Of a DNA stretch of 28,000 nt, positions 24,001 through 28,000 are shown piece after piece. The position numbers were made by a program, and so were the translations under genes. The notes below the pieces were generated by a model. The model had not been told where the DNA came from. It saw only the letters and a program-made list of their open reading frames with translations, and did no database searches. The first letter of the stretch is position 1; every line of letters begins with the position of its first letter. The stretch is from Candidatus Proendomicrobium guianensium (GTDB taxonomy: Bacteria; Elusimicrobiota; Endomicrobiia; Endomicrobiales; Endomicrobiaceae). The stretch covers positions 1 through 28,000 of the forward strand of contig WQVR01000001.1 in assembly GCA_009785775.1 (NCBI GenBank), read 5' to 3'.

Positions 24001-27000
24001 TCGCTAAGACCATTTGCACTAAAAAAATCCCTTTGTTGATTTTCTGTAAGGTTGCCTATTTTGTTTTCAAAGTCTGCGATGTTTGAAATTGTTATATTGT
24101 TTGATATTTTTACGGGTATTGCCGCTTTAGCGGTTCTTTCAAGAAGCGACATTGTTCCCCAGCCGAAACCGCCTGAAATGATTATTCTTTTTGTAGCGCC
24201 TTCATTGTATAACTGCAAAGCTTTCTTAAAGATATCCGCATTATCGTGACCGCAAATTAAAAGGAAATCTGCTGGGCTGTCCGTGGTTAACTGTTCAGAG
24301 CGGCTTAAAAGTGCAATAAGCTTGTTTATGTTGGTGGCAATTTGTTGCTCTTTTGTTTTAAAGTTGTCTTTAAAAATTTGGTTTATAAGATTAACTAATT
24401 CTTCTTTACGTATGTTGTCAGTAAAGTTTAACGGGTCGGGCATATGTCTATGTTGCAATTGTGGCAATTCGGGTGAAAGCTCGCTAAACAAAAGCACGTT
24501 AGGGTGTACGCCTAAAGCATTTAAACGCTGTAATAATGTTTGCCGGTGCTCTTCATCGACTGTTATTATAAAGTTAGGAATTGTTGCTATTAAAGTGTCG
24601 CCAAGATATTCAGATTTAAAACGGTTTAATATGTCTATATCAACTTGTCCGCGTAATATATTTTTATATTCAAGAGATAATGAGTTGTTTTGAATACTTG
24701 AATAATAGTCTATGCCAGCTGAAAAAACCTCTATATTCTTTTTGCCGTTGTCGCGCAAAAATTGTCTAAACAAAACGTTTGCCACAGCGCTGCGATTCAT
24801 ATTTTCAGAGCAAACAAAAACAATAGAGGTTTCTCTGTCATTGATTACGGCGGCTCTTAAATTTGCGATGTTTCTTGCTGTAATGGCGTTAATGTTTTGC
24901 GTTAAACGCGCTTCGGATGAGCCGAAAGCGTTCCAAATAAAATGGCTCCATATCAGGGCAATATTTAGCGCGATGTTTTGTAAAATTTTAAACCTGCTAA
25001 ACCTTTCATATGTTCTTTTGGCAGAACTTAAAATTTGGTTAAGGCCTTTTTCGTATTGTTTTCTGGTGGTTTCGTTATAGCCTGAATGGTTTTCAAGAAA
25101 TTCCTGCTCTTGGCTGGTTTTTCCCTGCAAACCCGCAAGAAAAACATTTTTAAGTTCGCGCCTTTCAGCGAAAGGCGCTATGGCAACCTGAATTATCCTT
25201 AAACCGTTTTCACCAAGAAACCTAAGTATAAGCTTGCTGTACCATTTGTCTAGGGTTGTTTCTGTTGTTAAATGCTGTCCTATTGACCGAAAATCACCTG
25301 TTATGCCAGCGGCTTGCCATGGGGCTTCCTGCGGCACTGCTATTGCCTCAATCTGTTGTAGTTGGGTAAGTTTTTTTGGAAGAATTGTAGAGGTTGCTCT
25401 AAATACTTCGTTGGAGTAAAAGTTTTGTATTTCTTCTGTCTTAACGAACCAAAATGATGTATAAGTATTTCTAAAACCGTCATTGCCTGTAGCAATACCT
25501 ATTAGAGGATACCATACACCCGCCTGTTTGCCGTATGTACCTTGTGACGATTTGTAAAACAAATGTCTCTGCCCATTAGGGTATGCGACTTCTACTATGT
25601 TTCTTCCGGAAAAGAAAAATCTATTTACAATTTTAAATTCTGTAACTCCGTTTAAGTTAAGGTTTAATATGTTGTCAAAAAATGCATAGAAGCGCGCAAT
25701 GCTTTCCTCACTTCTTAAAAACGCGTATGCTTGTCCTTCTGCGCTAGTTAAAAACTCTAAAAACCTTTCCTGTTCAGACTCAGGGTTGTTTTCCATTTCA
25801 ACGCGCTCAAATACATATTCGCCTGTTTGTAAATTAATAAAAGTTTTTCTGCTTACAATTTTATTATGTTCGGACAAATTTATTGAATATTTAGAATGAA
25901 GATGGCTGTTGGTAATTAAGTAATAAATCCCGTTTTCTTCCTTTATTTCAAATGTGTCTGTTGCAAGATTTACAAACCCGTTTGAAATGTTTGCTATTTG
26001 AAAATTTCCGTTTTGTTTAGAAATAGCGATAAGAGGAAAATATCGGTCGCCATGTCCATGATAAAAAATAGTATCTCCATTGCTTAAATCTGGCAGAGCA
26101 AAAACCAAGTTTGTTCTTTGGGTTCCGTCAAATTCTTGCCAGTGTATACTTTCGTTAAGTCCTTCAAGCGCTTGGTGGAAAGTAGGGTTTTCATTTAATT
26201 TTATAGTTTTCCCAACAACAAACATGTTTTTGCCGTCTGCATGTATTCTCGCAAATTGCGAGCCATAAGCATTTCTTGCTTGTAAATTGCCCACTCCGGC
26301 GCCATATAGTCTTGCTGCTGTAATTTGTGACAGCATGTTAAGGCTTGCTTGCCTGCCGATATCTTCATTTATTACCGAAATGCTGTTTGCGCCGTCGTAA
26401 AATATCCATATTTTTTTGGACGGATCTGCATTATTGCCGTGAATATAAGCGTTTTTTATAGTTTCTTTTAAAGCCTCCTGCTTCCATTGGAGATCATATT
26501 CACTAATATGCAATTTTTCTACAAGTACGCCAGCTAATGTATAAATTATACCTGCCACGTCTTGGCGGAATATTTCAGGAAGGATGGGGGCGTCTGTTTC
26601 AAAACTGTCAAATATTATAGATATTAATGCAGATTGCCCTCTTTGCATTTTTTCAGTTATAGTTTGTCTGACATGTTCGTCTCCCGGTGTTATCTGATCA
26701 TGAAAGGCTTTTTGCATGAGTAAGTCAGTAAAGTTAAAATCAATAATTTGTTGCGGATTAAGTTTTTGGGTTAAAATGTATTGTGCGGTTGCTACGTCAG
26801 TTGTAAGTGCAATGCCTTTTCTGTTTACCAATGAGTGGGTAAACATCATAGCGACATTTGCAAAAGCAGAGGCAAAAGTGTTGGTTGTAAATCTACTATC
26901 ATAACTGTATAATATTCTATCTAGCTTGGCATTAAATTCTGCTATTGTCTCAGTATTTCCTACTGCAACCGCGGTTCTATAACGCAAGTGCCTCATTAAA

Positions 27001-28000
27001 AACGCATTTCTCTTATTTTTATATTCTTCTATAGCGTGTGTCTCAAGCCTAAAGTTTTTAACATAAATTCTAAGTTCTGCTAATTCCCTTAGTTCAGATT
27101 GTTCAAAAATAGGGGCTAATATGCGCGTTAAAATAAAGTGCCTTAAACCTTTGGTTGTTCCGCCAAATCTGTAAGCTCTTGCCCAAGAAGACGTGAAAAT
27201 TTTGCCTAAAATTGTGTGTTCTTGCACACTTGTGACAGTTGTATCTGTAGTTAATACGGTAGAGGGTACAGGATTAAATATTTGGCGGGCATGATAAAAG
27301 GCAGAGCCTTCATCAAATTGTATTTCTTCACTTTTGTACTCCGTAGTAAAATAGGAAGCTCCGTGGTTATTGTTTACTTCAATGATTCCTCCGCCATGTC
27401 CGTGTACGCCAGTAATTTTTGCAAGTGCTTTTGCGTTATTATTTGCAACTGCGCCTATTTTGTTTAAAACATTTACAGTAGCGTTTGTTTTGTCTATGTA
27501 GATAAATAGCGGTTTATTTAATTGACCGTAATATCCATGGGCTATGGCATTTTTTAACATTTCCCAAAGTCCAACATTAAGAGCAATCCGCATACGGTCT
27601 TTTTCATAAAATAACTTGTCAAATATAAGCTCTGAATTCGGGTTAACATTTTTGGTTAAATAATCTGTGAGCCCTTGCACAAATGAAAAAAATTCTTGTG
27701 CTATTACGCGGTATTGCCATTTAAAGTCTTCAGACATTTCACTTACGGATATATCAGGTATTATGAAATTTCTGTTTACAGTTAAAGAAAGAATTTCTCC
27801 GCGGTTAACGGCTTGTACTATTTCATAAAATATATTCTCATCAAAATTGCCGCTTGGTAATATGTCTGTTAAATCAAATTCTGTTATTCCCGAAGCATTG
27901 AAAAAATTAACAAGGTTATTTATATTTGTGGCATGTAAATCGACGGGCATGGCGGCAAGGTGCCTTTGCAAAAGCCATTGTTGGCTGCGCTCTGTCCAAC
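21030..28000 (-). CDS. Giant multidomain protein, C-terminal >2320 aa (5'-truncated): 2x HATPase-like, LMW-PTP, YdcF/DUF218, 2H phosphoesterase, repeated helical modules
   Basis: The frame stays open to base 28000 (WTERSQQWLLQRH...), so TTG 27971 is not the true start. Motifs: EMLKNAIAHG, ETIKNAYIHGN, VCSENMNRS...PDP, ISGG...SEA...HTGEN...VQQLR, HST/HIT. Confidence 0.9.
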   Translation of the reverse strand, partial: WTERSQQWLLQRHLAAMPVDLHATNINNLVNFFNASGITEFDLTDILPSGNFDENIFYEIVQAVNRGEILSLTVNRNFIIPDISVSEMSEDFKWQYRVIAQEFFSFVQGLTDYLTKNVNPNSELIFDKLFYEKDRMRIALNVGLWEMLKNAIAHGYYGQLNKPLFIYIDKTNATVNVLNKIGAVANNNAKALAKITGVHGHGGGIIEVNNNHGASYFTTEYKSEEIQFDEGSAFYHARQIFNPVPSTVLTTDTTVTSVQEHTILGKIFTSSWARAYRFGGTTKGLRHFILTRILAPIFEQSELRELAELRIYVKNFRLETHAIEEYKNKRNAFLMRHLRYRTAVAVGNTETIAEFNAKLDRILYSYDSRFTTNTFASAFANVAMMFTHSLVNRKGIALTTDVATAQYILTQKLNPQQIIDFNFTDLLMQKAFHDQITPGDEHVRQTITEKMQRGQSALISIIFDSFETDAPILPEIFRQDVAGIIYTLAGVLVEKLHISEYDLQWKQEALKETIKNAYIHGNNADPSKKIWIFYDGANSISVINEDIGRQASLNMLSQITAARLYGAGVGNLQARNAYGSQFARIHADGKNMFVVGKTIKLNENPTFHQALEGLNESIHWQEFDGTQRTNLVFALPDLSNGDTIFYHGHGDRYFPLIAISKQNGNFQIANISNGFVNLATDTFEIKEENGIYYLITNSHLHSKYSINLSEHNKIVSRKTFINLQTGEYVFERVEMENNPESEQERFLEFLTSAEGQAYAFLRSEESIARFYAFFDNILNLNLNGVTEFKIVNRFFFSGRNIVEVAYPNGQRHLFYKSSQGTYGKQAGVWYPLIGIATGNDGFRNTYTSFWFVKTEEIQNFYSNEVFRATSTILPKKLTQLQQIEAIAVPQEAPWQAAGITGDFRSIGQHLTTETTLDKWYSKLILRFLGENGLRIIQVAIAPFAERRELKNVFLAGLQGKTSQEQEFLENHSGYNETTRKQYEKGLNQILSSAKRTYERFSRFKILQNIALNIALIWSHFIWNAFGSSEARLTQNINAITARNIANLRAAVINDRETSIVFVCSENMNRSAVANVLFRQFLRDNGKKNIEVFSAGIDYYSSIQNNSLSLEYKNILRGQVDIDILNRFKSEYLGDTLIATIPNFIITVDEEHRQTLLQRLNALGVHPNVLLFSELSPELPQLQHRHMPDPLNFTDNIRKEELVNLINQIFKDNFKTKEQQIATNINKLIALLSRSEQLTTDSPADFLLICGHDNADIFKKALQLYNEGATKRIIISGGFGWGTMSLLERTAKAAIPVKISNNITISNIADFENKIGNLTENQQRDFFSANGLSEAKIIEIVLRHHAYNMGIEIAAGDLILETQARHTGENFTLTRDIILEYIIENARPARPIRLAYMQIPVQQLRTHGTFMQTFAAELEQGKIEGISITIPYVHERRNENLSETDEQIQSIAGELLRMLIYSKHNWGDNADLKIPSPVTADVLPVIIGLIENSQNPQAIKTYLFRLTNHADILRLYENFKNTIPEYLKLIIERYIEELRIYEETMRTLNLDAVRTQIKKSMPEEGTTLYTAPTIITRYSLNRAFTEAITPFVEQLNAPELEGLLHISTNNALHSTLSFKPGTSPYDIITPENLALLRQATEAASIAAGQLNNVKLTGEFIFTPSGVIIYKISNAEILDWISNARLALIEVSEDFKTQLDFFHITIARLKTTDFTPKQIMRLRAIIAQANENGILNNVAVNFTSFEYGEFETLYIIPINNNFGEIHLPLNMTSEEHSVEAVQTNFIDGFISTLNSRKIVAYIFRQIIKFKMGFGRNINSNATQTVFFVYATEANLQEKIKQYGLVDGVVFIVNDVIRGNSTSINISANRAALREWPLEISYGKRVFSANGVSHTEIAQTLQNSRMFSDISAFVVIDSENATAISFEGDMIKVGHELIEQHRTTGSLADYITGLSNLQREWRETQANKNILDISNFRSFQRSAGEVLRLLATQNALQPMKVMLNEKQLEKLENYGANIRNLRLFGVEIFLNLGNENTATEQKASYANTGISGIFSNGVLTSLSTGITLPARTFHKIEDLGGLSFDAKLSDNFQGYNIIDINFIQDEINSMRSILAGNNILSALQGWFGKTFFLNEITKQDATNMAHKLEFSEAVRITGEALTKDMARPIAANLHQAQIMRSQLDADTYEAYIETLTARILVLNMIERTRAEQNLIQSERLIIEQDTGRKNTLTTLIVKDETFNGIEFLQNASSFFVASDDDFTFGQLIMQGLSGNATQEQIKQAIAVVISDSFRLAPVLDITSRRQRNNAHSHQIAGTRAILAAA

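Follow-up and report, generated by a model that had tools for sequence, protein, structure and literature searches.

A soluble helical module with an invariant Glu/His/His/Asn set within giant exported proteins of Endomicrobiales

The 28-kb stretch analyzed here (28,000 nucleotides; hereafter designated the window) is the entire contig C1 (WQVR01000001.1) of a 1.02-Mb metagenome-assembled genome (MAG; completeness, 78%) of Candidatus Proendomicrobium guianensium, and its minus strand carries a giant open reading frame (ORF), P0001. We found that P0001 contains two copies of a ~140-residue module, which we regard as established to form a new family of soluble helical domains whose tetrad of one Glu, two His, and one Asn resembles an active site or a ligand site. 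The domain is previously undescribed, being without match in curated families, solved structures, and predicted-structure clusters, and is restricted to giant multi-enzyme proteins that Endomicrobiales (termite-gut Elusimicrobiota) export by Sec. Because the residue set mimics that of CAAX-type (CPBP/Rce1) proteases, it may divide the giant protein into fragments.

The two module copies of P0001

A sequence-only reading of the window had described a repeated helical module with conserved Glu, two His, and Asn residues at 27215–26796 (copy 1) and 25256–24894 (copy 2), and both the coordinates and the residues proved to be exact. The residue numbers given here are those of P0001; the earlier numbering equals these minus 9 (Table 1). 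In BLASTP of the pre-selected pair, the two copies showed 25% identity (E = 0.002), and their Smith-Waterman score of 49 was equalled in 9 of 2000 shuffles of the pair. When copy 1 was compared with the rest of P0001, the score was equalled in 17 of 300 shuffles, yet copy 2 was the top match; neither self-BLAST nor phmmer --max of P0001 linked the copies. Taken by itself, the pairwise sequence similarity is marginal.

A hidden Markov model (HMM) built from seven modules of other genomes, with none from the window, matched copy 2 at 105.7 bits (1.1e-34) and copy 1 at 20.1 bits, the latter with an E-value of 2.5e-8 in the one-protein search space, which becomes about 1.6e-4 when scaled to the 6,288 ORFs of the genome. 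The match to copy 1 spans HMM positions 4–142 of 147, and copy 1 scores 83.7 bits with the HMM of a 29-sequence family alignment (hereafter designated A3). Because the relatives-only profile matches both copies over the full length, the repeat is real and copy 1 is merely a more diverged copy; as judged from these sequence profiles, the two segments are confirmed as copies of a repeated module. A chance resemblance of two window segments without any repeated module would be compatible with the 17 shuffles and the silent phmmer search, but it is vanishingly improbable and is excluded by the independent full-length matches and by more than 50 further matches, about 30 of them inspected residue by residue, which carry the same invariant residues. 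Searching for further copies with HMMs, as the earlier reading had suggested, indeed returned copies in the genomes of relatives as well as another one in the same MAG. This third, divergent copy (contig C120, aa 118–260 of a minus-strand ORF) has the motifs LTEE, APEAE, FLGGH, and HRQHN, and its frame of 1,194 aa is a giant-protein fragment open at both contig ends.

Conservation, predicted fold, and distribution

In A3, with a mean column identity of 25%, the invariant columns are exactly E43, H69, H117, and N121 (copy 2 numbering), and F65 of the FxxxH motif is conserved at ≥90%. E, FxxxH, and HxxxN also persist, with rare exceptions, in more distant members, among them sequences from the order's other families and a subfamily whose ~2,300-aa proteins each have the module twice; in one distant group with an insertion, HxxxN appears to lie further downstream. 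AlphaFold2 (AF2) modelling of copy 2 with the family alignment gave a five-helix bundle (predicted local distance difference test score (pLDDT), 88.8; predicted template-modelling score, 0.81) with helices at 17–42, 44–55, 60–67, 77–97, and 102–123, preceded by a short helix at 11–14 and followed by a low-confidence helix. In this model, E43 is located at the junction of helices 1 and 2, H69 just past helix 3, and H117 and N121 near the end of the last helix; given a simple up-down topology, all four residues would sit at one end of the bundle. Single-sequence AF2 of P0001 aa 1–1060 was uninformative (pLDDT, 32). The relatives-only HMM, A3, and the AF2 model agree with the claim of a repeated helical module bearing the four residues. 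Two moderately hydrophobic helices, also noted earlier, are present in both window copies, where the maxima of 19-aa Kyte-Doolittle windows (1.24 and 1.25) are below the transmembrane level and no window exceeds 1.6.

Searches for known relatives of this fold were negative. The best Foldseek match in the PDB had an E-value of 1.2 and a template-modelling (TM) score of 0.3 or less; TM scores for the module model were below 0.4 in the AlphaFold database clusters and, by query, 0.44 or less in ESM Atlas structures; and the best Z of 6.2 among 48,161 chains in VIA-align corresponds to noise for helical bundles. A sequence-profile search of the PDB with the module gave nothing below an E-value of 0.01, the Pfam scan of all 29 members revealed no consistent family, and no NCBIfam family fits either, all in agreement with the sequence-only reading, which had recognized no named family. 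In the ESM Atlas feature search, copy 2 had no match; crAss/SU10 capsid clusters recognized at a sub-threshold level for copy 1 were taken as noise. Literature searches on giant proteins of Elusimicrobia/Endomicrobia yielded no description of the domain. Viewed as a conserved module inside exported giants with many enzyme domains, it represents a new variation on a known theme, and the domain itself is new.

Module-like stretches of relatives were located by a six-frame search inside giant open frames. A profile of the alignment detected the module in 25 of 88 further genomes of the family (termite-gut Endomicrobiia) and in 5 of 15 from the order's remaining families; outside the order, about 297 genomes of the phylum yielded a single weak partial match. 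The 44 small genomes of genus g2 all lack the module. All matches fall in open frames of 582–11,894 aa, often with two copies in a frame. Moreover, an exhaustive phmmer search with P0001 aa 1–1050 against 1.84 billion representatives returned only 35 proteins at E ≤ 0.001, of which 5 matched best via the module, and a profile search found no stand-alone module among the 76–243-aa proteins of a 5.8-billion-protein collection. Two relatives of the same order have open frames of more than 10,000 aa that share domains with P0001 (G028:C8, 11,894 aa; G023:C13, 10,285 aa).

Resemblance to CPBP/Rce1 proteases and candidate functions

The order E, FxxxH, HxxxN defines the CPBP/Abi/Rce1 proteins, in which the motifs EExxxR, FxxxH, and HxxxN occupy one helix each (PMC3578759). 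Catalysis in MmRce1 relies on E140, E141, H173, H227, and N231, and the Glu–His, His–His, and His–Asn spacings are 32, 54, and 4 residues in MmRce1 (counted from E141) and 33, 37, and 4 in DidK (PMC10811503), as compared with 26, 48, and 4 in the module. The module thus resembles these type II CAAX glutamic intramembrane endopeptidases (PF02517; MEROPS G5) in the identity, order, and approximate spacing of Glu, FxxxH, and HxxxN, in the placement of each motif on its own helix, and in a small-residue helix between motifs 2 and 4. Moreover, a Pro residue stands shortly ahead of the Glu in the module (AP..E), and the common CPBP motif is P..EE. Motif 2 (FxxxH) recurs with its well-conserved Phe and invariant His, both of which are kept in nearly all distant members, and motif 4 (HxxxN/D), on the last core helix, recurs as the invariant H117 and N121. 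This likeness of the active-site constellation to CPBP/Rce1, seen at the level of sequence, is the most specific functional lead.

The module may be pictured as a hydrolytic, most likely proteolytic, unit that would use CPBP/Rce1-type chemistry on a water-soluble scaffold, with Glu and His activating water and with His and Asn stabilizing the oxyanion. Cuts at flanking LT-x-D linkers would split the giant protein, and the neighbouring enzyme blocks would be freed after export. A self-processing, Rce1-like hydrolase module, metal-independent or metal-assisted and cutting at its own LTxD flanks, is the reading that we favor over its rivals, though tentatively, as a possible one; whereas the domain, its conservation, the confidence of its fold, its distribution, and the flanking motif are observed, catalysis, substrate, and cleavage position are inferred. 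That the module would be a soluble miniature counterpart of CPBP/Rce1, either convergent or diverged beyond recognition, which excises itself and cuts Sec-exported giants at LT-x-D linkers, is more doubtful, and we regard it as unlikely.

The flanks speak in favor of a self-processing module. The N edge of nearly all modules is L-T-x-D/E, and LTTD occurs three times in P0001, each time at a domain boundary, against 0.045 expected occurrences (0 of 2000 shuffles reached 3). Using a position-specific scoring matrix (PSSM) of the N flank, we found the motif again 7–12 residues past HxxxN in 11 of the 29 modules at p < 0.05 (about 1.5 expected) and in 6 of the 29 at p < 0.01, although these counts include kin modules that are not independent, so that the statistics are overstated. 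The N and C flanks of one module are more alike than non-kin flanks (one-sided Wilcoxon p = 0.004, 22 representatives), and in one lineage LTKNS stands on both sides of the module. In genome G021, two 71%-identical paralogous cassettes begin two or three residues ahead of LTSD, and their surroundings are unrelated.

Several results weigh against a self-cleaving, CPBP/Rce1-type hydrolase. About 60% of modules lack the C-flank motif, other domain boundaries in the giant proteins of relatives show no enrichment of LTxD, and, as judged by DSSP of the AF2 model, LTxD may be just a helix N-cap. Motif 1 (EExxxR) is not reproduced: the second Glu is absent, with only one Glu invariant, the position after it is occupied by R, A, Q, S, or L, and neither +4 nor +5 shows a conserved Arg. 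The PF02517 HMM had no match in the MAG at E ≤ 10, and hhalign of A3 against an alignment of five Elusimicrobiota CPBP domains gave a probability of 0.2%, in which only the Glu motif was aligned, with AP..E and EE in register. In VIA-align, Rce1 (4CAD) was outside the top 50 of the 48,161 chains, and the CPBP-like SpdC chain 6u0o_A ranked 16th with a Z of 4.5, at the noise level of helical bundles; Foldseek of the PDB returned nothing at E < 1 and no fold match to Rce1 or SpdC (6U0O). Furthermore, 12 of 18 giant open frames (≥900 aa) fetched from relatives are without the module, which for this reason does not define the system, as the sequence-only reading had considered possible.

Hydropathy also separates the module from CPBP. 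The four core transmembrane helices of CPBP are lacking, module helices 2 and 3 being just 12 and 8 residues long, and the grand average of hydropathy of the module is −0.36 (CPBP domains, +0.75), charged residues making up 26% of it (CPBP domains, 11%). Membrane insertion, proposed earlier as one property of the module, thus finds no support as a general one. Because the HMM, hhalign, fold, and hydropathy tests all fail, the module is not a demonstrable CPBP member; it is soluble, has short helices, and lies inside giant exported proteins, whereas CPBP proteins are free-standing multi-pass membrane proteins. A true, extremely diverged CPBP/Abi descendant that inserts into its own or a host membrane after export would share the motif set, order, and spacing, and the in-register Glu motif, the rank of the SpdC chain, and the single 19-aa window above 1.6 on the Kyte-Doolittle scale in 4 of the 29 modules could be taken in its favor; with such polar composition and short helices, and with profile and fold comparisons at the noise level, such descent is very improbable.

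The tetrad may instead bind a metal. Glu and two His form the classic mononuclear metal triad, and the initial prediction for CPBP, made from these residues, was likewise a metalloprotease (PMC3578759). A helical bundle with a 2-His-1-carboxylate site and Asn in the second shell could be one more enzyme carried as cargo (an oxidoreductase, or a hydrolase of small molecules or phosphoesters) or a regulatory switch that depends on metal, rather than a protease acting on the giant protein, and the shuffling of the module among giants like other enzyme domains, with 12 of the 18 frames lacking it, fits one cargo among many. On the other hand, His and Asn at i and i+4 on one helix would be unusual for a metal site, the DinB, hemerythrin, HD, and ferritin-like families are unmatched in the Pfam, PDB, and fold searches, and the repeated, co-varying LTxD flanks are left unexplained. 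We consider this metal-site alternative somewhat unlikely.

The module could also be a non-catalytic spacer, docking, or juxtamembrane unit that arranges the enzyme blocks or places them at a membrane, the polar residues serving for folding or partner contact. Helical bundles are common as adaptors, and MARTX, PMT, and large clostridial toxins reuse four-helix membrane-localization domains. The module resembles the latter as a reused helical bundle of ~100–140 aa beside effector domains, and differs from them in that there is no fold match and that the invariant E/H/H/N set is found only in the module. In G018 (L013 = G018:C1, aa 695–864 and 1766–1941) and G092:C20, the module directly precedes a Lys/Arg-rich stretch and then a clear transmembrane helix, which, together with the two moderately hydrophobic helices, would suit such a role; in this lineage, the C-flank LTxD is absent. 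However, most modules have no adjacent transmembrane helix, and strict invariance of E/H/H/N at 25% background identity across an order typifies active or ligand sites, making a purely structural role distinctly unlikely.

For the self-processing hydrolase, precedents exist among giant proteins. The cysteine protease domain of MARTX is an internal autoprocessing domain of a giant multi-effector protein. This domain and the zincin-like MPTase of polyvalent proteins (PMC5512222) are, like the module, small domains among unrelated enzyme or effector domains of a very large polypeptide, for which more than one copy or cut site per protein is possible and short recurring linker motifs occur at boundaries; internal autoprocessing peptidases are indeed known in giant polyvalent and toxin proteins (PMC5512222). 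In contrast to these, the module is all-helical, has neither the Cys-His dyad nor HExxH (the zincin-like HExxH is not conserved in A3), is a putative rather than an established cleaving domain, and is present in only a minority of giant paralogues.

Giant-protein context

P0001 is open at its 5′ end, where the contig stops at 28000, and the signal peptide and ~500-aa N-terminal domain with which its relatives begin are cut off by the contig end. Pfam and NCBIfam recognize just three things in P0001: a low-molecular-weight (LMW) phosphatase domain, which begins 18 aa past module copy 2, a sub-threshold DUF218 match, and two weak GHKL/HATPase-like stretches, the second of which matches the first with an independent E-value of 0.003. 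The GHKL-like domains and the LMW phosphatase are the neighbours of the module in P0001, and the earlier description of a module placed between enzyme (cargo) domains holds. Within about 500 aa of the modules of relatives, we found NDK, GNAT, LMW phosphatase, HD_4, UDP-glucose pyrophosphorylase, phosphoglucomutase, phosphoglucose isomerase, CBM48/alpha-amylase, and RamC_N. A duplication unit composed of GHKL and the module was considered and rejected as not general, the two being about 1,300 aa apart in G002. In relatives L029–L058, giant proteins with a signal peptide harbor phosphoglucose isomerase, phosphoglucomutase, UDP-glucose pyrophosphorylase, CBM48/alpha-amylase, and NDK; such housekeeping-type sugar and nucleotide enzymes are an unusual cargo for an exported protein.

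The giant-protein family is marked by a Sec-type signal peptide, the conserved ~500-aa N-terminal domain (motif ..YGKITS..VINIQDLH.. in relatives L011–L028), variable enzyme blocks, and a C-terminal tail, and all 11 full-length relatives examined have both the N-terminal and the C-terminal marks. The MAG contains at least 4 such N-termini (contigs C128, C59, C25, and C34), together with 3 C-terminal tails on other contigs, and, given these N-termini, its giant exported proteins form a family of paralogues. The P0001 tail, RAILAAA, fits R-x-[I/L/M]-L-x-A-A-stop, and the same tail ends L011, L013–L015, L018, L020–L022, L025, L027, and L028 as well as large frames on contigs C64 and C174 of the MAG; judging from its sequence, this tail looks like a C-terminal sorting or secretion signal. 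The ~540-aa C-terminal region of P0001 is not conserved within the giant genes of relatives.

The nearest named relatives of P0001 are Endomicrobia/Endomicrobium MAG proteins, all labelled hypothetical, and near-identical DNA is contained in termite-gut metagenomes. A word-indexed protein search with the whole P0001 returned only one protein, which shares the LMW phosphatase. Between the module copies, a ~100-aa domain without a Pfam match is common to many 131–500-aa proteins and other giant proteins in the library of 1.84 billion representatives. Downstream, the giant gene adjoins that of a small multi-pass membrane protein with a HELTH motif and a weak, sub-threshold Peptidase_M50/M50B-like match. 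The M50-like, CTP-transferase-like, and polysaccharide deacetylase neighbour genes are not conserved beside the giant genes of relatives and gave no operon-level clue.

Table 1 Features of P0001 and its surroundings in the window (positions in the 28-kb contig)
Feature	Position	Strand	Remarks
Giant ORF P0001	21030..27998	-	2322 aa in the window; contains both module copies
First HATPase-like (GHKL) domain core, upstream of copy 1	27468..27584	-	PF13581, weak
Module copy 1 (aa 242-409)	26772..27275	-	HMM envelope; earlier span 27215-26796; more diverged, two insertions
LTTD, N-terminal edge of copy 1 (aa 249-252)	27243..27254	-	
APIFE, copy 1	27102..27116	-	Invariant Glu, E299
FLMRH (FxxxH), copy 1	26988..27002	-	Invariant His, H337 (earlier H328)
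HSLVN (HxxxN), copy 1	26823..26837	-	Invariant H388 (earlier H379) and N392
LTTD, C-terminal edge of copy 1 (aa 398-401)	26796..26807	-	PSSM p 0.005
Second HATPase-like (GHKL) domain core, between module copies	26355..26528	-	Weak TIGR01925 match
~100-aa domain between module copies (aa 778-884)	25347..25667	-	
Module copy 2 (aa 903-1041)	24876..25292	-	HMM envelope; earlier span 25256-24894; near family consensus
LTTE, N-terminal edge of copy 2 (aa 910-913)	25260..25271	-	
APFAE, copy 2	25164..25178	-	Invariant Glu, E945
FLENH (FxxxH), copy 2	25086..25100	-	Invariant His, H971 (earlier H962)
HFIWN (HxxxN), copy 2	24930..24944	-	Invariant H1019 (earlier H1010) and N1023
Degenerate LTQN, C-terminal edge of copy 2 (aa 1032-1035)	24894..24905	-	PSSM p 0.18, alone not significant
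LMW phosphatase domain (PF01451)	24420..24824	-	5.2e-6, above curated cut-off
Third LTTD, linker between LMW phosphatase and DUF218 (aa 1237-1240)	24279..24290	-	
C-terminal tail RAILAAA	21030..21065	-	
Small multi-pass membrane protein, downstream of P0001	20245..20934	-	

Giant multi-domain bacterial proteins may act whole or be cut into pieces, and the module, being compact and lineage-specific and having both an invariant protease-like tetrad and a flanking motif of its own, allows a direct test of this with one recombinant construct. Even if it is no protease, the module represents a fold family that is new and modelled with confidence, and its ligand or active site is clear. If it is active, it would carry out Rce1-type chemistry independent of a membrane, and would constitute a new peptidase family and a candidate self-cleaving tag. 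Should the reading as a self-excising protease be true, the module would be the first protease to carry this catalytic constellation in soluble form, and bacterial giant proteins would have a new principle of autoprocessing. Such activity would help to explain how termite-gut Endomicrobia deploy exported enzyme arrays (kinase-like, phosphatase, NDK, GNAT, and sugar-metabolism enzymes).

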